A stretch of DNA of 64,000 nucleotides, from positions 544,001 through 608,000 of the forward strand of contig CBDATS010000004.1 of the NCBI GenBank assembly GCA_965200245.1, in the 5' to 3' direction. The notes under the pieces were generated by a model that saw nothing but the letters and a program-made list of their open reading frames with translations, was not told where the DNA came from and ran no database searches. Shown here piece by piece: positions 16,377 through 56,710 of the stretch (the stretch's first letter is position 1; each line of letters opens with the position of its first letter). Both the position numbers and the translations under genes were made by a program. The DNA is from a bacterium (GTDB taxonomy: Bacteria > UBA8248).

Positions 16377-17507
16377 CTACCAGACGCAGCCGCGCGCGGC
16401 CACGGGGATCACGGCTTCGAGCACGCCCATCTCCATTCCGCCACGAACGCCGTGGTAGACATCGTAGAGGTTGATGGTCGGGTCACAGTGGCTGGGCTGG
16501 AACAGGAGTGTCTCGCCAATTTCCGGTCGTCGCGAAGTCGGGGATAGCTCCAACACCCCGTGCTCATCAGAAGCCCGTGCATGCACGGCGCCTTCGAGTT
16601 CAAGGCAAGGAGCCAACCCACTGTCCGAGGAAAGTGCCTTGTGACCAGCGTCCATCACGACATGGCCGAGACCGGGCGCGCTCACCACGGTCGTCAGAAC
16701 GAACAGGCTGGGTTTGAAATCGTCATACGTGTCGGAATCCTCTCCGCCGATGCTGCGATAGTGCGAATCCATGAAGAGATAGCTGCCGGCCTGAAGCTCA
16801 TTCAGCACGCCATAGTCCGCATCCCACCGCCATGAACCAGTGCCGCCCCCGCTCCTGATTTCCGTCGAAAGCCCGGCAGCCTCGAACGCGGCCACCGTCT
16901 CGTGCATCAGCGCGACGGCGCGCGCGTAGGTTTCGCGCCGTTCGATGTATCCATCCACGTGCTGGGCCGCGCCCTGGTAGGCCTGAATCCCCATCAGTTG
17001 GAGCCCCTGCGCCGCTTCCACGCGTCTTGCGAGTTCCACCGCCGGCTCTCCGGGCGTCACGCCGCAACGGCCCTGACCCACGTCCACGTCAACGAGCACG
17101 CCGATTTCCACCCCCGCCGCCGTCACAGCTTCCGAGAGCATGCTCACCCCCTGGGGATGATCCACCACCAACATCAACTGCGTATGACGTGCGAGCGCGG
17201 CCAGACGCTTGAGTTTCGAGACAGCCGTGACTTCGCTGCTCACGAGCACGTTCTCCACCCCGCCTTCCACCATCACCTCGGCCTCGCTTACTTTCTGGCA
17301 GCACACGCCCACTGCGCCGAGTGCTACCTGTTTGCTCGCAAGCCAGGGACTCTTGTGCGTCTTGGCGTGGGCGCGCAGCCTGACACCCGTTCCTTCCAGA
17401 CGCTTCGCCATCAGGGCGAGGTTCTCCTCCATGACGTCTAGATCGATGACCAGGGCAGGCGTTTCTATTTCGCGCACCGGCGTTCCGATACTCTGGGCAT
17501 GGGGCAT
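16377..17507 (-). CDS. DSD1/D-threonine aldolase family PLP enzyme (fold III)
   Basis: TPALVIDLD, LRAHAKTHKS (PLP Lys), SGGGTG, ELQAGSYLFMD, SDEHG, PSHCDPTINLYD. Confidence 0.9.
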   Translation of the reverse strand: MPHAQSIGTPVREIETPALVIDLDVMEENLALMAKRLEGTGVRLRAHAKTHKSPWLASKQVALGAVGVCCQKVSEAEVMVEGGVENVLVSSEVTAVSKLKRLAALARHTQLMLVVDHPQGVSMLSEAVTAAGVEIGVLVDVDVGQGRCGVTPGEPAVELARRVEAAQGLQLMGIQAYQGAAQHVDGYIERRETYARAVALMHETVAAFEAAGLSTEIRSGGGTGSWRWDADYGVLNELQAGSYLFMDSHYRSIGGEDSDTYDDFKPSLFVLTTVVSAPGLGHVVMDAGHKALSSDSGLAPCLELEGAVHARASDEHGVLELSPTSRRPEIGETLLFQPSHCDPTINLYDVYHGVRGGMEMGVLEAVIPVAARGCVW

Positions 17508-17675
17508 GCAGTATCCTCCTCAAGGAGAAATCGACTCTTTATCTTAAGAATCTGTGGAAGAATATCACCAGAAAGACGAGGCGGGAACCGGCTTGCCCGC
17601 TGCCCTTTCATGCCGCATGATGGGGTTTCACGGATTCATGTGACTTTCCCGCTTGCATTCGGAGGTTTTTTCTTC

Positions 17676-18566
17676 ATGCGCACGAAGGCGGACGATCTCC
17701 TCGAAGGTGCCATCGACGTTCACGCTCACATCTTTCCTCAGGTATTCCTGGAAGAGCCCGGGCGCGTTTTGGACCACGAATGGGCCCAACTCGCGCGTGA
17801 CGTCGGTATGCGCGGCTTCGTCATGAAGAGTCACCTGTGGCCCACCATCGCGCAGGCGAGGATTCTGAACGAGGTATATCCGGGCGTCACGGCCTTCGGC
17901 GCCATTACCCTGAACGCCAACGTAGGCGGGCTTTCACCCTTCGCTGCGGAAAGCGCGGCGCGCCTGGGCGTGAAGGTCATCTGGATGCCCACCTACTCGG
18001 CGGCGAACGACATCACCGTGGGGGCCTACAGCAAACGCATCGCGGAGGCTTATCAGCAGCCCCCGCCTGCGCAGGGCCTGACCGTGCTGGATGAGAACGG
18101 CGCGGTGCGTCCCGAGGCGGACGCCATACTGGAAATCGCCCGTGACGCAGATGTAGCCGTGGCCACGGGGCATTTGTCCGCAGATGAGGGAGTCTCTCTG
18201 GCGAGGCGGGCGAAAGAAATCGGCGTGAAGAAATTCATTTTCACTCATCCGATCATCTTCATCATCAACGCGAGCGAGGGACAACTGCTTGAAGTAGCGG
18301 ACCTGGGCTACATCGTCGAGTTCACGTGGATATCGGCTTTTCCCATGTGGCGCGACCTCGACCCCGTGAAAGTTGCCGAAACGGCACGCGCCCTCGGCCC
18401 TGAACGATGCGTGATGAGCACCGACGCGCAACTGGACCTCAATCCCCCGCCAACGGAAATGTTGCGCATGTTCATCGCCACGATGCTTCGCCTGGGTTTC
18501 GAGGATGAGGATATCCGCTGGATGGTGCAGCGAAACCCCGCCCGCCTGATGGGCCTCGAAGAATAG
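17676..18566 (+). CDS. Amidohydrolase-fold protein (DUF6282-like)
   Basis: GAIDVHAHIFP, GMRGFVMKSH, VIWMPT, ATGHLS, MSTD, NPARLMGL; GGAGG RBS. Confidence 0.8.
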   Translation: MRTKADDLLEGAIDVHAHIFPQVFLEEPGRVLDHEWAQLARDVGMRGFVMKSHLWPTIAQARILNEVYPGVTAFGAITLNANVGGLSPFAAESAARLGVKVIWMPTYSAANDITVGAYSKRIAEAYQQPPPAQGLTVLDENGAVRPEADAILEIARDADVAVATGHLSADEGVSLARRAKEIGVKKFIFTHPIIFIINASEGQLLEVADLGYIVEFTWISAFPMWRDLDPVKVAETARALGPERCVMSTDAQLDLNPPPTEMLRMFIATMLRLGFEDEDIRWMVQRNPARLMGLEE

Positions 18567-18965
18567 GAAACACGCGTGGTGCACCCCAATATACGACCTG
18601 GAGAGGTGTATTGCGCTTCGGTTCGCCCCGCTGAAGCGTATTCTTGACTCTCTGCGCAAATTTCCTGCACAACTTTTGGGAAAATACAAAATCAACAGCA
18701 GCACTCTTATCCATACTCAAGGAGAATTCAGGACAAAACGAAATCCAGGGAGGGAACTTGAGTCGATATCTCGCTATTCCGTCAGAAGATGCACGGATTC
18801 GACCATTTTTAATCAATCTGTCGTATCATTTAGACACGCTTGTCACAATGAACATTTATACTGGCGCGTGCAGTCATCGCGAAAAAACGCCGCGACAGTC
18901 AATCAATTCTCCGGCGAATCGAATACCGCAAGAGTCGGGGACACTACCAAAAAAGGAAAAACGCC

Positions 18966-21322: not shown

Positions 21323-21994
21323 ATGGCGTCGAAACTATCTATTCGGGGTCTCCAGAAAATGTTTTCGGTGAACGAGGGATTCGGCAGCGTTCGCGAAATC
21401 CGCGCCATCGACAACATTGACATCGAAGTGCAGGACAACGAATTCGTCTGCATCATCGGCCCGAGCGGATGCGGGAAATCCACCATGCCGATGATTCTGG
21501 CTGGTCTCTATCCCAAATCGACCGGCGAGATCATGCTTGATGGGCAACCCCTCTCCGGGCCGGGCTTGAACCGGGGTGTCGTGTTTCAGGATTTCGCCCT
21601 GTTCCTTTGGCAGGACGTACGCACCAACATCCTCTGCGGAGTGAGGCAGAAGGGAATCCCCAAAAGTGAGTGCGAGAAAATTGCGGGTCACTACATCCAT
21701 CTCATGTCCCTCCAGGGGTTCGATAAAACCTTCCCCAACCGCCTCTCGGGTGGCATGCACCAACGCGTGGTCATCGTCCGCGCCTGGCGGGTGTTGCTGG
21801 CGGGCGAACTGCGCGCCTCGCCGGAACTGGGCTTGGGCGTCCGCATATTCGACGCTCAGGAAACGCTGAACAGCGCCGTGATCCATGGCGGCATTATCAT
21901 TATCGGTTTTCTGGGCTTCACGGTGGAGCGCCTCGTCCTGCGCTCACTCGAAGTCGCCATTGTCCAGAAATGGGGAATGCTGAGGGAACTATGA
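21323..21994 (+). pseudogene. In-frame chimera of a NitT/TauT ABC ATPase N-terminus and a permease C-terminus
   Basis: Walker A GPSGCGKST and LSGGMHQR present, Walker B absent; after ~21780 reads RAWRVLLAGEL..ELGLG..I..A...GGIIIIGFLG as in SsuC/TauC ends. Confidence 0.75.
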
Positions 21995-22971
21995 TTCTGA
22001 GTCCACCCGCAAAAGACGGACCGCTCATTGCTGTCGCCGGAACCCGTTTCGGTCCTCCCACGATCGAGGAAGAGGTACTCTCGCCTCTGGGTCCTCGACT
22101 AGGTCTGGGCATGGGAGCGGACACCGAATCACTCGTCGAACTCTGCTCGGAGGTGGAGGGCGTAATCATCGGCGCCGCTCCCAAATTCACGGCGGAAGTT
22201 ATCGCCCAGCTCGAACGCTGCAAGATTATCGCGCGCGGCGGTGTTGGCGTGGACAACATCGACCTCGAAGCCGCAAGAGCGAATGGCATCCAGGTCACTT
22301 ATGTGCCCGATTACTGCGTCGATGAGGTATCGGACCACGCCATGGCGTTCATCCTCTACTTCGCCAGAAAAATCGAGGCGGGAATCGCGGAAGTTGAAAA
22401 AGGCGGCTGGGGAATTGCCCCCCTAAGACCAATCGCACCGCTTCGGGGCGCGACGCTGGGCGTGGTGGGAATCGGTAGAATCGGCGCAGCCCTGGCGGAT
22501 AAAGCACGCGCCTTCGGTATGCGGATCATCGCGAACGACCCATTCGCGCCCGAATCCGTTTTCGAGAATCTGGGAGCCGAGAAAGTCGTGCTCACACGAA
22601 TCTGGGATGAATCCGACTACATATCCCTTCACGTGCCCCTGATGCACGAGACGAGAGGTATCGTGAACGTCGAGGCGTTGGAGCGCATGAAGTCGGACGC
22701 CGTTTTGATCAACGTGGCGCGCGGCGAACTCGTGGATGAAGGGGCGCTCGCCGCCGCCCTCAGGAAAAACGACATCCGGGGCGCGGGTCTTGACGTGCTC
22801 AAACAGGAACCTCCGCCGCCGGATCATCCCCTGCTCGGACTGCCCAACTGTCGCGTCACGCCGCACAGCGCCTGGTACAGTACGGCCGCTCTCGAAGATA
22901 TGAGGCGAAAGGCGGCTATGGACGTGTTGCGTGTCCTGCGGGGGGAGGATCCGCTCTACCCCGCTCAATAG
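21991..22971 (+). CDS. D-isomer-specific 2-hydroxyacid dehydrogenase (CtBP/SerA-like)
   Basis: GVGVDNID, VPDYCVDEVSDH, GIGRIG, INVARG, TPHSAWYS. Confidence 0.9.
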   Translation: MILSPPAKDGPLIAVAGTRFGPPTIEEEVLSPLGPRLGLGMGADTESLVELCSEVEGVIIGAAPKFTAEVIAQLERCKIIARGGVGVDNIDLEAARANGIQVTYVPDYCVDEVSDHAMAFILYFARKIEAGIAEVEKGGWGIAPLRPIAPLRGATLGVVGIGRIGAALADKARAFGMRIIANDPFAPESVFENLGAEKVVLTRIWDESDYISLHVPLMHETRGIVNVEALERMKSDAVLINVARGELVDEGALAAALRKNDIRGAGLDVLKQEPPPPDHPLLGLPNCRVTPHSAWYSTAALEDMRRKAAMDVLRVLRGEDPLYPAQ

Positions 22972-22997
22972 CACAACCTGCCAGTATGGTGAACGCG

Positions 22998-23846
22998 TTA
23001 CTTCTCGATTGGAAAACCGACGATGCTCCCCCACTCGGTCCATGAGCCATCGTAAATTTTCAGGTTTTCATAGCCCAGCAGGTACCGCATGGCGAACCAG
23101 ACCAGACTGGCCCGGTGGCTTAGCCGTCAGTAGAGGACGAGTTCTATCTCGTCATCGGGCGCGACGCCCACGCCGTCGAGGATTCGGGCCAGTTCTTCCC
23201 TGTCCTTGAACGTGTCGTCTTCGTTCAACAATTCCCGGAAGAAAAGATGAGCCGCCCCGGGTATGCGTCCCGCGCGTTCGGCCCCGTGGTCGAAACCGGG
23301 GGGCGGCATCACTCGCTCGCCCCTGTATTCCTCGGGCGAGCGAACGTCGATCAGCACCCTGCCCGGCTTCCCGAGCCCGTCGCGAATTTCGTCCCTGCCC
23401 ATGCTGAGGATATCTCCCCCATCCGGAGCGGGGTGAACGACGGCGTCGGCATTCGGCGTCTCACTCGAGACGGACACTCCGTCAACCATCCACTTTTTCT
23501 TCGAACCATCGAGTAGTTTCAGGTTCGAAAAACCCGCTATCTTGAGCACCCAGAAGGCATAGGTCCCAAACTGCACCGGCTCGCCGTACAGGACGATTTC
23601 ATCATCCGGTCCGATTCCCATTTTGCCCAGACGCCCGGCCAGCGCTTCGGACGTTGCGAACATGCGGTCCGTCTCGTGCCAGAGCGCTCCTTTCCAGAAC
23701 CACCAGTGCGCACCTGGAATGTGGGCCTCACGATAGGAGGCGTCGTCGCTGGCGGATGATACCTCGATAACGTGGAGATCTGGATTTCCGAGGTTTTCAG
23801 CGAGCCACGCCGATGAAACGAGCGCGGAGTTTTCGGCTTGCGTCAT
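22998..23846 (-). CDS. Tandem-rhodanese sulfurtransferase (SseA/CysA type), probable selenoprotein with Sec at the catalytic position
   Basis: Frame continues past TGA 23127-23129: LVLY-U-RLSHRASLVWFAMRYLLGYENLKIYDGSWTEWGSIVGFPIEK*; TGA sits at the catalytic Cys of the YCR loop; 282 aa in total. Confidence 0.85.
23096..23116 (-). promoter_or_regulatory. Putative bacterial SECIS hairpin
   Basis: mRNA UGA-CGGCUAAGCC-ACCGGGCCA-GUC-UGGUCUGGU: 9-bp stem (two G-U pairs), apical G about 20 nt after UGA. Confidence 0.7.
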
Positions 23847-23912
23847 GTCTCATACCCTCATAGTCAGAAAACGAACCTGCAAATCGCGTCAGTGAAATCG
23901 TTTCGGGAAACA

Positions 23913-25337
23913 TCACCCACCGAACATCGGGGGCTTCCTGTTCTGGATATCCTGCGTGGCCTGTTCGAACGCATGGGACGCCTGCAGCACGCGGGCTTCC
24001 TCCCAAGGCGGTCCCACGATCTGCACCGACACGGGCAGGCTATCCGCGCTGAAACCCGAAGGCGCCGACATGACGGGGAAACCGAACAGGTTGTAGGGGC
24101 CGGACTGGGGCCTGCCGAGTCCCGTATAGGGAATTTCCACTCCATTCACGACGCCCATCGTCGTCGCAATCGGCGCGGCAGGACAAGGATAGCCCGGTGC
24201 CAGGAGAAGGTCGATCTCGTCGAACACCTTCTCCATCTCCCGCGTTAATGTGCGCCGGTCTCTCATCGCGTGCGCATACTCGTCCAGCGTCACGCGGCTC
24301 GATACCTCCAGGCGCTCGCGGACATCGTCGCCGAACTTTTCGGGATGAGATGCGAGCCGATCGCGGTGAACCACTGCCAGTTCGGCCGCCGCAATGATGC
24401 GCCGTACCTCTCTCATCCTTTCCGTGTGGGGGTAGCGCACATGTACGATAACACCTCCCAAAGACTTTATGGTCTCTATCACGAACTCGAAACCCCTTTG
24501 CACCGATTCGTCGTTCTCATCGAGGTATAAATCCTCACAAACCCCGAACCGCATTCCATCGATGCTTTTCCCTATCTGGGCGCAGAAATCGGGAGCTTCC
24601 CGATTCTCGGAACCGGGATCCGCCATGTCGTAGCCCGCCATGGCCTGGAGTATCAAGCCGCAATCGCGCGCTGTCCTCGCAAGCGGGCCGGCATGATCGA
24701 GACTTGGAGCGTTCGGGAAAACGCCACGAAGGCTCACGCGCCCATAAGTGGGTTTCAGACCCATGACCCCGCATGCGCTCGCGGGTCCCCGCACGGAGCC
24801 ACCCGTGTCGGTTCCTACGGTGCCGGGACACATGAACGCCGCCACCGCCGCACCCGAACCGCCGCTTGAGCCACCCGATACCCGCTCGGTGTCCCAAGGA
24901 TTGCGGCATGGACCGTAGTGGAGGTTCACCGTGGTGGAACCCGCCGCGAACTCATGCGTGTTGCATTTCCCGATGATGACGGCGCCCGCCTCCTTGAGCT
25001 TTCTCACGCACTCCGCATCTGCCTCCGGGACGTTATCCGGGAAAAAGCTCGACCCCTGCGTCGTAAGCACGTCCGCGGTATCGATGATGTCCTTGATGCC
25101 GACGGGCACTCCGTGAAGAGGACTGCGGTAGTGGCCACCCTGAATCTCGTTCTCCGCCTTTGCCGCGTCCCTGCGAGCCTCGTCCGCGCATACGGTGATA
25201 AAGGCGTTGAGTTCGGGGTTGTGCGCCTCGATGTGGCGCAAATGCGCGTCCACGACCTCGCGCGGGGAAACCTCCCTGCTTTCGATATGCCCGGCGAGTT
25301 CGTGAAGTGAGAGAAAAATCAGTCCATTGACGCTCAT
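23913..25337 (-). CDS. Amidase signature family enzyme (GatA-like)
   Basis: PLHGVPVGIKD, GGSSGGSGAAVA, GTDTGGSVRGPA; GGAGG RBS before ATG 25337. Confidence 0.9.
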   Translation of the reverse strand: MSVNGLIFLSLHELAGHIESREVSPREVVDAHLRHIEAHNPELNAFITVCADEARRDAAKAENEIQGGHYRSPLHGVPVGIKDIIDTADVLTTQGSSFFPDNVPEADAECVRKLKEAGAVIIGKCNTHEFAAGSTTVNLHYGPCRNPWDTERVSGGSSGGSGAAVAAFMCPGTVGTDTGGSVRGPASACGVMGLKPTYGRVSLRGVFPNAPSLDHAGPLARTARDCGLILQAMAGYDMADPGSENREAPDFCAQIGKSIDGMRFGVCEDLYLDENDESVQRGFEFVIETIKSLGGVIVHVRYPHTERMREVRRIIAAAELAVVHRDRLASHPEKFGDDVRERLEVSSRVTLDEYAHAMRDRRTLTREMEKVFDEIDLLLAPGYPCPAAPIATTMGVVNGVEIPYTGLGRPQSGPYNLFGFPVMSAPSGFSADSLPVSVQIVGPPWEEARVLQASHAFEQATQDIQNRKPPMFGG

Positions 25338-25608
25338 TTTCACCTCCATTCCACATGTGTGATTTTCATTCTGCTTCCACCTGTTTGATGAAATACTACC
25401 ATACCACGATGCGCCTGTTTTCACCTTACGCGATGTGAGTATATTCGCGCATCGTCACTGCTCCCGGTTGGACATTCGGCCCTCTTTCCGTAAGACGAAT
25501 CCCGCGAAAGAAACACATACGCGATTGATATTTCCACGCCGCTCATGTGGAATGTTCTCTGCGTGCCACGGAAGCCCCGGAACGGCAACGAAACAGTGGA
25601 GACCCCGG

Positions 25609-44218: not shown

Positions 44219-45946
44219 ATGATTATCGAACGTGACCTGCCCGTCGAGATGGATGACGGAGTTGTGCTCAGGGTTGACGTATTCCGGCCCGACACCAAGG
44301 AGAAAGTGCCCGTCGTAATGGCCGGGGGCCCCTACGGCAAGGGCGTCAAGTATCAGGAACACTACAAGCCGCTCTGGGATTCGCTAGTGAAGATGCATCC
44401 CGATATCCTCCAGGGTTCACAGCACCGCTGGCTCACCTGGGAGACGGTGGACCCCGAGATATGGGTACCCTGGGGCTATGCCTGCGTAAGGCTTGATTCA
44501 CGTGGAGCGGGGCGTTCGCCCGGCTATCTCGATATCTTCTCCCCTCGCGAGACCAGGGACTTCGCAATCGCCATCGAGTGGGCGGGACAGCAGAAATGGT
44601 CGACCGGCAAAGTGGGCCTGAACGGTGTTTCATACTACGCCATCAACCAGTGGCAGGTTGCGGCACTTCAGCCCAAGCATCTGACGGCCATGATCCCCTG
44701 GGAGGGGGCGGCCGACCACTATCGCGACTGGGCGCGCCATGGGGGCATTCTCTCCAACAAATTCATGGAAATCTGGTATCCGCGTCAGGTGGAAGCAGTG
44801 CAACACGGAAACCCCGAAGGCCCGCGTGACCACTGGATGGAAACGCGCTCTACGGGTCCGGCAACGCTCTCGGAGGAAGAGCTCAAGGAAAATCGCGCCG
44901 ATACTCTCGCGAACTTCCTCGCGCGCGAGATGGACGACGACTGGTACCGTTCCCGCTCGCCCGATTGGTCAAAGGTGAAGGTTCCCTTCCTGAGCGCGGG
45001 TAGCTGGGCAGGCTTCGGCCTCCATCCGCGCGGCAATTTCGAGGCTTTCACACAAGCGGCGTCCGAGGAGAAGTGGCTCGAAGGTCATCCGGGCAGGCAC
45101 GAAGAGTGGTTCTACCTCGAATATGGCATGCAGCTTCAGAAGCGCTTTTTCGACTATTATCTCAAGGACGAACAGAACGGATGGGAGAAAGAGCCGCGCG
45201 TGTGGCTGAATCTCCGTCGTCCGTTCACCGACGAAGTGGAACTGCGCAAGGAACACGAATGGCCGCTCAAAGGCACCGACTGGACGAAGCTCTACCTCCA
45301 CGCGGGCGACAAGGGCAAGCTCGACTGGGACCCGCCCAAGGCGGAGTGCTCGGAGACCTTCGAGGCACTCACGCGCGGCATCACACTCAGGACGCCGCCA
45401 CTCGAGGAAGAGACCGAGATCACCGGCCCGATGGCAGCCAAGCTGTTCATCTCCTCATCCACGGTGGATGCGGACCTGTTCGTCACCGTGCAGGCGTTCT
45501 CGCCCAGTGGCAGTGAGGTCTACTTCCAGGGCACGGTTGACCCCAAGACGCCGCTTGCCCAAGGCTGGTTGCGTGCCTCGCACCGAAAGCTCGACGAGGA
45601 GAAATCCGAACCTTGGCGTCCCTATCACACGCACGACGACAAGCAGCCACTCATGCCGGACAGGGTTTACGAACTCGACGTGGAAATCTGGCCCCAGTGC
45701 ATAGTGCTGCCCAAGGGCTTTCAACTCTCCATCAACATCGCCGGGCAGGATTTCGACCGGCCTGGACCTGCGGTGGATGCCTACGTGCCCTCACGCGGCT
45801 CGGGTCCTTTCCTGCACGATCATCCCGTCGATCGCTCAAAGGAAGTCTTCGGAGGGCGCACCACGCTGCACACGGGACCGGAACATCAATCCTATCTACT
45901 TGTTCCGATCATCCCCACGGAACGCCCGGGTGCGGTTGCGAAGTAG
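44219..45946 (+). CDS. CocE/NonD family hydrolase (peptidase S15)
   Basis: PYGKG, WETVDP, DSRGAGRS, nucleophile elbow GVSYYA, PWEG, GWLRASHR; AGGAGG RBS. Confidence 0.92.
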   Translation: MIIERDLPVEMDDGVVLRVDVFRPDTKEKVPVVMAGGPYGKGVKYQEHYKPLWDSLVKMHPDILQGSQHRWLTWETVDPEIWVPWGYACVRLDSRGAGRSPGYLDIFSPRETRDFAIAIEWAGQQKWSTGKVGLNGVSYYAINQWQVAALQPKHLTAMIPWEGAADHYRDWARHGGILSNKFMEIWYPRQVEAVQHGNPEGPRDHWMETRSTGPATLSEEELKENRADTLANFLAREMDDDWYRSRSPDWSKVKVPFLSAGSWAGFGLHPRGNFEAFTQAASEEKWLEGHPGRHEEWFYLEYGMQLQKRFFDYYLKDEQNGWEKEPRVWLNLRRPFTDEVELRKEHEWPLKGTDWTKLYLHAGDKGKLDWDPPKAECSETFEALTRGITLRTPPLEEETEITGPMAAKLFISSSTVDADLFVTVQAFSPSGSEVYFQGTVDPKTPLAQGWLRASHRKLDEEKSEPWRPYHTHDDKQPLMPDRVYELDVEIWPQCIVLPKGFQLSINIAGQDFDRPGPAVDAYVPSRGSGPFLHDHPVDRSKEVFGGRTTLHTGPEHQSYLLVPIIPTERPGAVAK

Positions 45947-54418: not shown

Positions 54419-56695
54419 ATGTCCGGCACAACTCGGAAATCCTATACGATCTGCTCCCCCCATTGCGGGAATAATCCGTGCAGTTTTGAGGTTGAAGTAA
54501 ACGAAGGAGAAATTGCCTCGTTCCGGGCGAATCCCAAAATGCGCATCAAGCCCTGCATCAAGGGGTTCCAGTTACCGGACAGGTATCACCACCCCGACAG
54601 GCTCCTCTACCCCATGAAGCGAGTAGGCGCGAAAGGTTCCGGACCGGGCAACTCGAACCGCTTTGAGCGAGTGAGTTGGGATCAAGCACTGGATCTGGTC
54701 GCCGAGGGACTCGAAGCCGCCAGGGAGAAGGGTGGCAACGAATCCGTGATGATGTATCACTACTCCGCCCAGCACACCCTGCCCGGCGGACGCGACGCGG
54801 AACCGGCCACCATCATGCGGCTTTTGAACATGTGGGGCGGCGCAGTGCAACCCTACATGCGTGGCAGCCTCTGTTGGAAGGCCTTCTTGGGAGCGAGCAC
54901 GGACGTATTCGGACACTGGCAGGTGAGCAACAAGCCGACCGATGACTGCGAGTGGATCGTCCTGTGGGGCAACAACCCGGTGGAGACGGGATACCGCGGT
55001 CTCCTCCAGTCCCTGCAAACCGCCAAGAAAAATGGATGCCGCTTCATTGTGGTAGACCCTTTCCGCACGAGGACGGTGGAACGCTTCTGCGATGTGCACG
55101 TGCCGATTCGCCCCTCCACCGACACTGCGCTCGCGCTGGCCGTGCTGCGCCTCATGCTTGCAGAAGACGCATTCGACGAAACCTTTCTCAGGCAAAGAAC
55201 CAATGCCGCCTTCCTTATTAATACTGATACAGCCCGCTTCGTTCGGGATTCGAGCGGTGCACCGCTTGCCTGGGATGAAGAAACCGCCTCGGCCGTAGCG
55301 TTCGACGCTTGCACGAAACAGGCCCTGAGCGGCACTTTCCATGTGAATGGAACCGGCTGCAGGCCCGCACTCGATTACCTGCGCGACGCCGCCGAACCCT
55401 GGACACCCAAACGCGCAGCGCGAGAATGCGGCGTCTCGACGGAACACGTGCGGGCTATTGCAAACGCGATGCGAAACGGAAAAATTATCGTCTATTACGG
55501 TTCCTATCAACGCACCGTATACGGTGAGCAGGCTGTCCGTGCGCTGCACATCCTGAACCTTCTGGCGGGCGCTTCGGGCGGTGTTTTACGCCACGGAGCA
55601 AAAGAAACGGGTTTTCCCTCCGACACGGCGCACGGCACTGGCCTCGCCGAAGTGATGACTGATCGATGGGCCGTCCCGAATCCCGTGAAACGCACCATTC
55701 CGACCGGTCGGATCGGAGAAGCCATCCTGACCCCTGATTCTTACGGTGGCCCCGTGCACGCCGCGCTCGTGATGTGGGGCAACCCGGTCGGCCAGGCCGG
55801 AAATGCGCACAAAACCGAGCGCGCCCTGCACTCTTTGGATTTCTGCGCGGTGGCGGACATCTTCATGACGCCGACAGCGAAATGCGCAGACGTAGTGCTG
55901 CCGGCCTCCACTTGGCTTGAACGCTGCGCAATCACCGGGGGCATGGAGATGGGCAGTACCTTCTATCATCTCGCTCATGAGAATTCACCCAAGCATATTC
56001 TCCTTTACACGCCGGGTGTCATGCCGCCGCGTGGGGAGTCGCTCGATGATTTCGAGATCGTCTGCCGCCTGGCCGAAAAAATGGGTTACGGCGCACATTT
56101 CCCGTGGAAATCATCCAGGGAATGGATTGAAGAACTCCTGGAAGCGGCAAGGACGGACGCACGCTTCCCCTGGTTCCGGGACGTTACGCTCGAAAGGCTC
56201 GAAGTCGAGGGCCAGATTACCCTCGATATCCCGGACGCCGCGCCGCACTGGGAACTCGCCACTCCGCAAGGTCGCGCGCAGGTTTATTTCGAGGACATCA
56301 AACAAAAGACACCGGCTCATTTCTCACCAGAACAGGGTCCGAACGGCACAGGCTACCCATTGCAACTCCTTACGCCGAAAACCTATTTCCGTGCGAGTTC
56401 GACCTTCAACAACGCGAGGAAACTCCTGCGCCACGGCTGGAACGTCGTCACCCTTCATCCGGCCGATGCAGCCGCCCGGGGCATCGGGGAAGGCGACAGC
56501 GTACGGCTTCGGAACGATTTCGGAGAGTCCGTCTTCGAGGCCAGGGTGAGCGAGCGAATTCGCCAGGGAGTCGTGCACGTGCCTGCGGGCGGATTGCCGG
56601 AGGACGGCGCGGCAAATCAGCTCACCGGCGACGCCTTGTCAGAATACGAAAACGCCACGTTCAACAGCTACCATGTAGAGGCTGAGAAAAGCTGA
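54419..56695 (+). CDS. Mo/W-bisPGD oxidoreductase catalytic subunit (DMSO reductase family), no Tat signal
   Basis: CSPHCGNNPC..C, HPDRLLYPMKRVG, VLWGNNP, PIRPSTDTALA, TPTAKCADVVLP, LHPADAAARGI. Confidence 0.9.
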   Translation: MSGTTRKSYTICSPHCGNNPCSFEVEVNEGEIASFRANPKMRIKPCIKGFQLPDRYHHPDRLLYPMKRVGAKGSGPGNSNRFERVSWDQALDLVAEGLEAAREKGGNESVMMYHYSAQHTLPGGRDAEPATIMRLLNMWGGAVQPYMRGSLCWKAFLGASTDVFGHWQVSNKPTDDCEWIVLWGNNPVETGYRGLLQSLQTAKKNGCRFIVVDPFRTRTVERFCDVHVPIRPSTDTALALAVLRLMLAEDAFDETFLRQRTNAAFLINTDTARFVRDSSGAPLAWDEETASAVAFDACTKQALSGTFHVNGTGCRPALDYLRDAAEPWTPKRAARECGVSTEHVRAIANAMRNGKIIVYYGSYQRTVYGEQAVRALHILNLLAGASGGVLRHGAKETGFPSDTAHGTGLAEVMTDRWAVPNPVKRTIPTGRIGEAILTPDSYGGPVHAALVMWGNPVGQAGNAHKTERALHSLDFCAVADIFMTPTAKCADVVLPASTWLERCAITGGMEMGSTFYHLAHENSPKHILLYTPGVMPPRGESLDDFEIVCRLAEKMGYGAHFPWKSSREWIEELLEAARTDARFPWFRDVTLERLEVEGQITLDIPDAAPHWELATPQGRAQVYFEDIKQKTPAHFSPEQGPNGTGYPLQLLTPKTYFRASSTFNNARKLLRHGWNVVTLHPADAAARGIGEGDSVRLRNDFGESVFEARVSERIRQGVVHVPAGGLPEDGAANQLTGDALSEYENATFNSYHVEAEKS

Positions 56696-56710
56696 ATACG
56701 CGTGTGGCAC

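Follow-up and report, generated by a model that had tools for sequence, protein, structure and literature searches.

The selenoprotein candidate and its catalytic site

The window analysed here is a stretch of 64,000 nucleotides, corresponding to C4:544001-608000 of a 3.68-Mb genome in 15 contigs (G000). On its minus strand, at 22998..23846, it carries a putative selenoprotein gene for a tandem-rhodanese sulfurtransferase, consisting of 282 codons and a TAA stop codon (23000-22998), with a predicted selenocysteine (Sec) at codon 240. Translation of the frame 23846..22998 reveals one internal stop only, the TGA at 23129-23127, which is codon 240. It is found in the context LVLY-TGA-RLSHRA and is followed by 42 intact sense codons that include the motif YDGSWTEWG. 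An earlier note on this DNA had claimed that the sole in-frame stop falls exactly at the catalytic Cys and that the 42 codons behind it, YDGSWTEWG among them, are undecayed; the translation and the alignment to solved structures agree on both points.

Two rhodanese stretches (PF00581, E-value 1.8e-29) were recognized by Pfam in the protein obtained by reading through the TGA. A phmmer search against the PDB aligned this protein collinearly and over its full length with solved rhodaneses, with 1uar (2e-59, residues 4-282) and 3hwi (6e-54) next to 3aax, 3hzu and others. In these alignments, the TGA falls on a Cys, which is part of the motif YCRIAERS for 1uar and YCRIGERS for 3hwi, and the stretch behind the TGA aligns through to the C-terminus of the solved proteins. 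The UGA codon (23127..23129, minus strand), here read as Sec, therefore occupies the catalytic Cys position of the C-terminal rhodanese domain, in the loop U-R-L-S-H-R-A. In the N-terminal domain, a Gly (LYG-E) is present at the place of the C-terminal LY-U-R, in keeping with the one inactive domain that tandem rhodaneses have. The COG2897 / SseA-CysA type is laid out in this way, with two rhodanese domains of which the C-terminal one holds the catalytic residue, and the active-site loop U-R-L-S-H-R, with its basic side chains and Sec replacing Cys, fits the loop of these tandem rhodaneses as well. Judged by its sequence, the gene product is a 282-residue tandem rhodanese of the COG2897/SseA-CysA type with an inactive N-terminal and a catalytic C-terminal domain, its activity being predicted.

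Conservation of the TGA among orthologues

A family search with the read-through protein as query was performed in 42 genomes. Full-length orthologues with exactly one in-frame TGA were retrieved from G000 and from 20 further genomes of the genus, with amino acid identities of 72-85%. In all 21 of these, the TGA is located at the same column (LY-TGA-RLSHRA), the tail is intact and no further stops or frameshifts occur. In another genome of the genus (G010), the gene is distributed over two contigs, with one TGA in the C-terminal fragment. A match is lacking in only one genome of the genus, which has a completeness of 79%. A second close copy was not found in the genome of the window, with a single match at E <= 1e-30.

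Outside the genus, the picture is uniform as well. The orthologues of other genera of the same family (51-61% identity) carry TGC at the TGA column in 9/9 cases extracted; none of the orthologues of these genera has an in-frame TGA, and a TAG occurs in one partial match located at the end of a contig. Across 51 genomes of the phylum, no orthologue with an in-frame TGA was retrieved beyond the genus. One scan each of genome and metagenome contigs, made for divergent Sec forms, yielded Cys forms only, i.e. Cys in 80/80 of the more distant genome loci (76 TGC, 4 TGT) and in 80/80 metagenome loci (77 TGC, 3 TGT), both being sets that may leave out records very near the genome of the window. Overall, the active-site column is Cys in 169/169 Cys-form homologues examined. 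The check for Cys/TGA pairing suggested by the earlier note thus turned out clearly, with TGA throughout the 21 genus orthologues, TGC in the nine sister-genus loci that were read and TGC or TGT in all 160 of the more distant ones.

Next to the position of the TGA, the loop itself separates the homologues. The form C-R-[LM]-S-H-R-[AG] is present in 14/80 genome loci and 13/80 metagenome loci (one of them C-R-M-S-H-R-G), and the common loop C-R-I-G-E-R-S in 63/80 and 64/80, respectively. The loop U-R-L-S-H-R-A is, by motif, part of a distinct subfamily, apart from C-R-I-G-E-R-S.

The distribution of Sec over a quick maximum-likelihood tree with 53 sequences can be explained by a single change of state. 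The exact Sec split has a support of 66, and a support of 88 was obtained for the group that also holds the Cys row L069, which has a very long branch and is probably badly extracted, its match being broken. In the simplest history, the ancestor of the genus would have exchanged TGC for TGA a single time. As a separate observation, the protein of the window itself (tree row L024) has a terminal branch of 0.18, compared to 0.02-0.08 in its closest genus relatives; a contamination of 8.1% is reported for the assembly of the window.

A SECIS-like hairpin within the coding sequence

A hairpin resembling a selenocysteine insertion sequence (SECIS) is predicted within the coding sequence at 23096..23116 (minus strand), with the 5' arm at 23116-23108, a GUC loop at 23107-23105 and the 3' arm at 23104-23096. 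In both the minimum free energy and the centroid structure of RNAfold, the stem has 9 bp and its first base is the 11th nucleotide after the UGA, leaving 10 nt in between. The hairpin described in the earlier note, with 9 bp and an AGUCU apex, is real in this sense and its spacing is right, but the two features do not go together: the structure has either 9 bp with a GUC loop or 8 bp with AGUCU. Of the 21811 candidate open reading frames (ORFs) of the genome that end in TGA, 216 (1.0%) contain a stem of 9 bp or more in the interval searched; in 17 (0.08%), this stem also lies at an offset of 8-14 nt and encloses a loop that begins with G and is no longer than 5 nt.

The hairpin lies in an invariant block of 30 nt (23088..23117, minus strand, codons 244-253), which extends 8 nt beyond it on the 3' side. 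This block is nucleotide-identical in 21/21 Sec forms, at pairwise nucleotide identities over the gene of 74-95%, and it is the longest invariant run of the gene alignment, the next one being 14 nt long. Degenerate codons for invariant amino acids are frozen in 8/8 cases within the block versus 19/126 elsewhere (Fisher 1e-6, a value that is overstated because the sequences are related). Likewise, the level of synonymous differences (pS) is 0 in the block, compared to 0.42 in the part of the gene preceding the TGA and 0.47 in the part that follows the block. At the block positions, the nine Cys forms use 2-4 codons, although the peptide they encode is almost identical. Codon 247, whose G and U are the first two bases of the loop, is AGT (Ser) in 21/21 Sec forms and ACC or ACG (Thr) in 9/9 Cys forms. 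RNAfold predicts the hairpin in 20/21 Sec forms, the minimum free energy fold of the identical stretch in L031 being another structure, and in none of the nine Cys forms. Since the block is frozen in the Sec forms and absent in the Cys forms, the hairpin and the UGA appear to have been introduced jointly into the coding sequence. It is these comparative data, and not the folding energy, that raise the hairpin above chance.

Selection on the tail and its coverage by RNA contigs

The coding tail past the block (23001..23087, minus strand, codons 254-282, including YDGSWTEWG) would be translated only upon decoding of the UGA. Among the 21 Sec forms, this tail has a ratio of non-synonymous to synonymous differences (pN/pS) of 0.084 at a pS of 0.47, and is more strongly constrained than the 239 codons before the TGA (pN/pS 0.245). 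This suggests that the tail is translated, as a dead tail would not behave in this way. At the RNA level, contigs of two metatranscriptome libraries (X6 and X7) cover the UGA and the tail at a likeness of at least 99%. The stretch also occurs in sponge-metagenome runs.

Selenocysteine machinery and selenoproteins of the genome

All four genes that the earlier note had asked to look for are present in the genome and score over their curated cut-offs. The tRNA-Sec (selC) was detected with 75.9 bits against a cut-off of 47 and is called SeC with anticodon tca by ARAGORN, selA scores 572.7 bits, selB, which adjoins selA, 391.9 bits and selD 338.6 bits. The selD gene (C8:72779-73741) itself contains one in-frame TGA, in the context KAGG-U-GSK. 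Instead of a genome without Sec machinery whose close homologues carry TGY and no hairpin, as the earlier note would have expected for a plain nonsense mutation, the machinery is thus complete and the genus orthologues have both the TGA and the hairpin. Within the phylum, selA exceeds its cut-off in 49/51 genomes, the two misses being 79% and 67% complete, which indicates that the use of Sec is ancestral to the group. TGA is otherwise an ordinary stop codon and the commonest one in the genome of the window, ending 1060/2169 ORFs of at least 300 amino acids, and a reassignment of UGA is therefore excluded.

A crude scan of the genome for TGA-interrupted frames with a coding signal on both sides and a hairpin gave 126 candidates, of which the top 40 were put to Pfam. 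In 12/40, a domain of a known selenoprotein family spans the TGA: deiodinase-like/redoxin, OsmC, CMD (four), UGSC (two), glutaredoxin-DinB and DSBA (three). In one further candidate, a GrdB-like Pfam match ends four residues before the TGA, which belongs to a U-x-x-C. These 12 candidates and the GrdB-like one are L136, L139, L145, L148, L151, L152, L155, L156, L160, L161, L162, L167 and L170. The scan is noisy, with the rhodanese gene ranking 84th of 126 and SelD failing the upstream coding filter. For 25/40 of the top candidates, no Pfam family was found at E <= 1e-5, and many of them read like antisense frames. Two others were rejected, L138 because it consists of two adjacent genes in one frame and L172 because its domain does not span the TGA. 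Within the window, the candidates at 44969-45724, 56324-56710 and 17628-18704 (all minus strand) have no Pfam match, look like antisense artefacts and were discarded as well. Based on these results, the genome is rich in selenoproteins, with at least 15 genes including selD and the rhodanese gene and a true number that is probably higher.

One TGA-interrupted frame of 235 codons was left out of this count, L163 (G000:C15:128338-129045, minus strand). Its coding signal is good both before and after the TGA, and its hairpin has 8 bp and a GGTC loop. Its 'NNCLGHN' is C-x-x-C-like and appears CMD/AhpD-like by eye, with no Pfam match at E <= 1e-5.

The hairpins of these genes provide a comparison from within the genome. 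After the UGA of selD, a hairpin of 6 bp with a GGA loop is found at an offset of 11. In the 13 other selenoprotein genes, the offsets are 9-17 nt, the stems have 6-8 bp and the loops are small and contain a G, with 9/13 loops beginning with G. The position and loop of the rhodanese hairpin lie within this geometry. According to the available text of PMC1088965, a bacterial SECIS is a stem-loop that follows soon after the UGA and has a small apical loop with a G, and the rhodanese hairpin fits this description in its position and its G-containing loop.

Interpretation and alternative explanations

Based on the evidence above, the UGA at codon 240 very probably encodes Sec, which would serve as the catalytic nucleophile of the tandem rhodanese. 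The Sec machinery, the TGA/Cys pairing, the frozen hairpin and the purifying selection on the tail all support the Sec-dependent transferase proposed in the earlier note.

For decoding, SelB carrying Sec-tRNA(Sec) would bind the 9-bp hairpin that begins 10 nt past the UGA, and Sec would be inserted instead of termination taking place. By analogy with Cys rhodaneses, the selenolate would then attack a sulfane sulfur donor, for which the basic loop U-R-L-S-H-R-A suggests an anionic compound, e.g. thiosulfate or a persulfide. An enzyme Se-S(-) intermediate would be formed and the sulfur would be passed on to a thiophilic acceptor. The lower pKa and the better leaving-group character of selenium might speed up both half-reactions. 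Concerning its origin, TGC would have changed to TGA once, in the ancestor of the genus and within a phylum that uses Sec throughout, and the change from Thr to Ser (AGU) that supplies the G of the loop would have come along with this switch.

A more far-reaching possibility is that the switch to Sec went together with a change of job, the protein being either a dedicated selenium carrier or an enzyme whose Se-S chemistry handles a donor beyond the reach of Cys rhodaneses. In the carrier version, which would belong to a lineage possessing dozens of selenoproteins, a Se-Se or Se-S relay could capture selenide or selenotrisulfide and hand it over to SelD. In the other version, an alternative donor could be hinted at by the unusual U-R-L-S-H-R-A loop. 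Either way, such a change of job is considered unlikely.

Several observations weigh against an enzyme with Sec at codon 240. The identity of the residue is predicted from the sequence. A 76-nt fold around the hairpin has a z-score of -0.92, with 34/200 shuffled sequences folding at least as well. The hairpin shows no covariation, as its 30 nt are identical in all 21 Sec forms; because it never varies, the structure is supported by prediction together with the frozen synonymous sites. A scan of 22500-24500 gave no Rfam family, SECIS included, at the hairpin (23060-23135, minus strand, E <= 10), with three chance-level matches elsewhere or on the other strand. Moreover, the hairpins used for comparison within the genome were partly pre-selected for having a hairpin, and the RNA contigs and the probable source sample belong to one and the same study; these contigs might be due to carry-over of DNA. 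Among the neighbouring genes, no sulfur- or selenium-specific gene was found, and they give no clue to the substrate or the acceptor.

A rival explanation is that the UGA is decoded in another way than as Sec, by a near-cognate or suppressor tRNA (inserting Trp, Cys, Gly or Arg) or after reassignment of UGA. Stop-codon read-through and UGA reassignment do occur in bacteria. However, UGA is in normal use as a stop in this genome, the Cys that it replaces is invariant in the homologues so that the enzyme would lose its activity with Trp, Gly or Arg, the Sec system of the genome is complete, a TGA is present in at least 14 further genes from classic selenoprotein families, and a SelB-type hairpin is frozen at the right distance. 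Decoding as another amino acid is therefore regarded as very improbable.

An equally slim chance is left for the explanation that the 30-nt block has a role other than that of a SECIS, such as a regulatory RNA structure, a protein-binding site or a pause site, in which case the decoding of the UGA would depend on something else. The missing covariation and Rfam match and the unexceptional folding energy would be in line with this. On the other hand, the block occurs in the TGA forms only and is absent from the nine Cys forms with nearly the same peptide, and its position and small G loop correspond both to the SECIS description available in PMC1088965 and to the other selenoprotein genes of the genome.

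A plain nonsense mutation, leaving a pseudogene or a 239-residue product without the catalytic loop, might be suggested by the public gene calls and by the frequency of TGA as a stop, but its probability is next to nil given that 21 full-length orthologues have retained this TGA while diverging to 72% amino acid identity, that the 29 codons past the block are under the selection described above, that further stops and frameshifts are lacking and the 30-nt block is frozen, and that no second close copy is available to replace a dead gene.

The Sec-containing rhodanese is of interest for evolution in two ways. It would represent a clean, datable and recent conversion of Cys to Sec, in which sister genera with the same Sec machinery have kept Cys. 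In addition, a SECIS hairpin would have been built inside a highly constrained coding stretch, with one amino acid change, from Thr to Ser (AGU), giving the G of the loop.

Genomic neighbourhood

Upstream of the rhodanese gene, an amidase gene of 503 amino acids (23913..25424, minus strand; Pfam Amidase, 1e-116) ends 66 nt before the rhodanese start. In this 66-nt gap, neither a sigma-70-like promoter nor an intrinsic terminator is predicted, and contigs of the RNA libraries tile it (X6 at 23582-23913 and X7 at 23854-24022). The co-transcription with the amidase that the earlier note had inferred may take place, being compatible with the short gap, the lack of a predicted promoter or terminator and the RNA contigs.

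Among the Sec-form loci, the amidase is located upstream in 20/21. In 14 of these the two genes are immediate neighbours, and in the other six (L028, L030, L032, L033, L038 and L044) they are set apart by 0.4-1.2 kb of additional DNA. The amidase is found upstream in 0/9 Cys-form loci, some of which have short flanks. The arrangement was not accepted as evidence that the amidase and the rhodanese form a functional pair, since it is genus-specific, is interrupted in 6/20 loci and is absent from all nine Cys loci.

The further neighbours encode a D-Ser-dehydratase-like protein, a DAO-type oxidoreductase, a 2-hydroxyacid dehydrogenase, hydantoinase A and B and an ABC ATPase. Going by these annotations, the neighbourhood points to amide and amino-acid catabolism. 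The 2-hydroxyacid dehydrogenase gene (21970-22971, plus strand) is convergent with the rhodanese gene and lies downstream of it. It is also found beside the Cys form in 3/9 sister-genus loci (L045, L047 and L053) and is a more widely kept neighbour than the amidase. Amid the amino-acid and amide catabolism genes, there is also an ORF of 355 amino acids at 17499-18566 (plus strand) with a match to DUF6282 (1.6e-59).

Public annotation

The expectation of the earlier note that standard annotation would call the protein truncated holds true, as the public gene calls stop at 239 amino acids. The orthologues of the genus are called as proteins of 237-239 amino acids without the active site, and 'rhodanese-like domain-containing protein [Nitrospinota bacterium]' is the NCBI name of a 239-residue member of a close cluster. 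The read-through protein stays below the cut-off of every NCBIfam model. NF008557 (3-mercaptopyruvate sulfurtransferase, equivalog) scores 93.5 bits against a cut-off of 250, and the rhodanese_LYCAU (seleno)protein model NF041203 scores 34.8 bits against a cut-off of 115. As a consequence, a predicted active enzyme is under-reported in every genome of the genus.

A survey from which the gene would probably not escape is BSepDB. As far as the available text of PMC13326102 goes, its method is a tblastn search with known selenoproteins in which Sec/TGA pairs are kept, and this would probably pick up the rhodanese gene. The same text places metagenome-assembled genomes of the GTDB phylum UBA8248, labelled 'Nitrospinota', in the top ten bacteria by number of selenoprotein genes, with 48-54 each, and the genome of the window presumably belongs to this phylum.

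Comparison with known systems

Like the rhodanese hairpin, the textbook bacterial SECIS of E. coli fdhF follows right after the UGA inside its gene, has a small loop with G and U at its apex and is presumed to bind SelB. The two share no sequence homology, and the likeness of their loops put forward in the earlier note is tentative.

The nearest systems with a solved structure are Cys tandem rhodaneses, namely 1uar from Thermus thermophilus and the thiosulfate sulfurtransferases 3hwi, 3aax and 3hzu. These have the same two-domain layout and the same catalytic column, with an Arg next to it and a second Arg five residues on, and the same C-terminal YDGSWTEWG. They differ in having Cys for Sec, loops of the form C-R-I-[AG]-E-R-S and no requirement for a hairpin. 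The Sec form and its Cys orthologues, at an identity of about 60%, represent a natural pair in which the contribution of selenium to persulfide transfer could be studied.

That Sec-containing sulfurtransferases had been predicted before, as stated in the earlier note, is confirmed by a COG2897 family that was predicted in 2005-2008 and has been catalogued. According to the available text of PMC1088965, a 'Rhodanese-related sulfurtransferase, COG2897' with three sequences was among 15 new selenoprotein families of the Sargasso Sea. A 'Sulfurtransferase COG2897' is listed with three Sec and four Cys members for the Olavius symbionts (PMC1976440, available text) and with one Sec and eight Cys members for the Global Ocean Sampling data (PMC2398784, available text). 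Like the present gene, these COG2897 selenoproteins are tandem rhodaneses with Sec for the catalytic Cys, a SECIS-like hairpin and Cys homologues, and were predicted from sequence alone. Full-text literature searches, none of them aimed at biochemistry and with subscription journals outside their scope, found no biochemical characterisation of a Sec rhodanese.

In a 2026 review, as far as its text is available (PMC13188914), five rhodanese selenoprotein forms are distinguished, form 4 being the Sargasso family with the motif UxxG. Compared by this motif description, form 4 corresponds to the widespread C-R-I-G-E-R-S loop, whereas the present protein has U-R-L-S, i.e. UxxS instead of UxxG, and belongs to the C-R-[LM]-S-H-R-A subfamily. 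Given that Cys is found in all of its closest relatives, which belong to sister genera within the family, the gene appears to result from a Cys-to-Sec switch that is separate from that of form 4 and limited to a single genus. The single-domain rhodanese selenoproteins (forms 1-3 and 5 in the available description, and NF041203) share the rhodanese fold and a Sec in or next to the active-site loop, and form 1 is also described as UxxS. However, forms 1-3 and 5 consist of a single domain or a DsbD fusion, and the score against NF041203 given above, far below the cut-off, indicates that the present protein is not a member. From the sequence comparisons, the rhodanese gene is best described as an independently arisen member of an already predicted kind, in what appears to be one of the selenoprotein-rich lineages catalogued before, which would not surprise a specialist.

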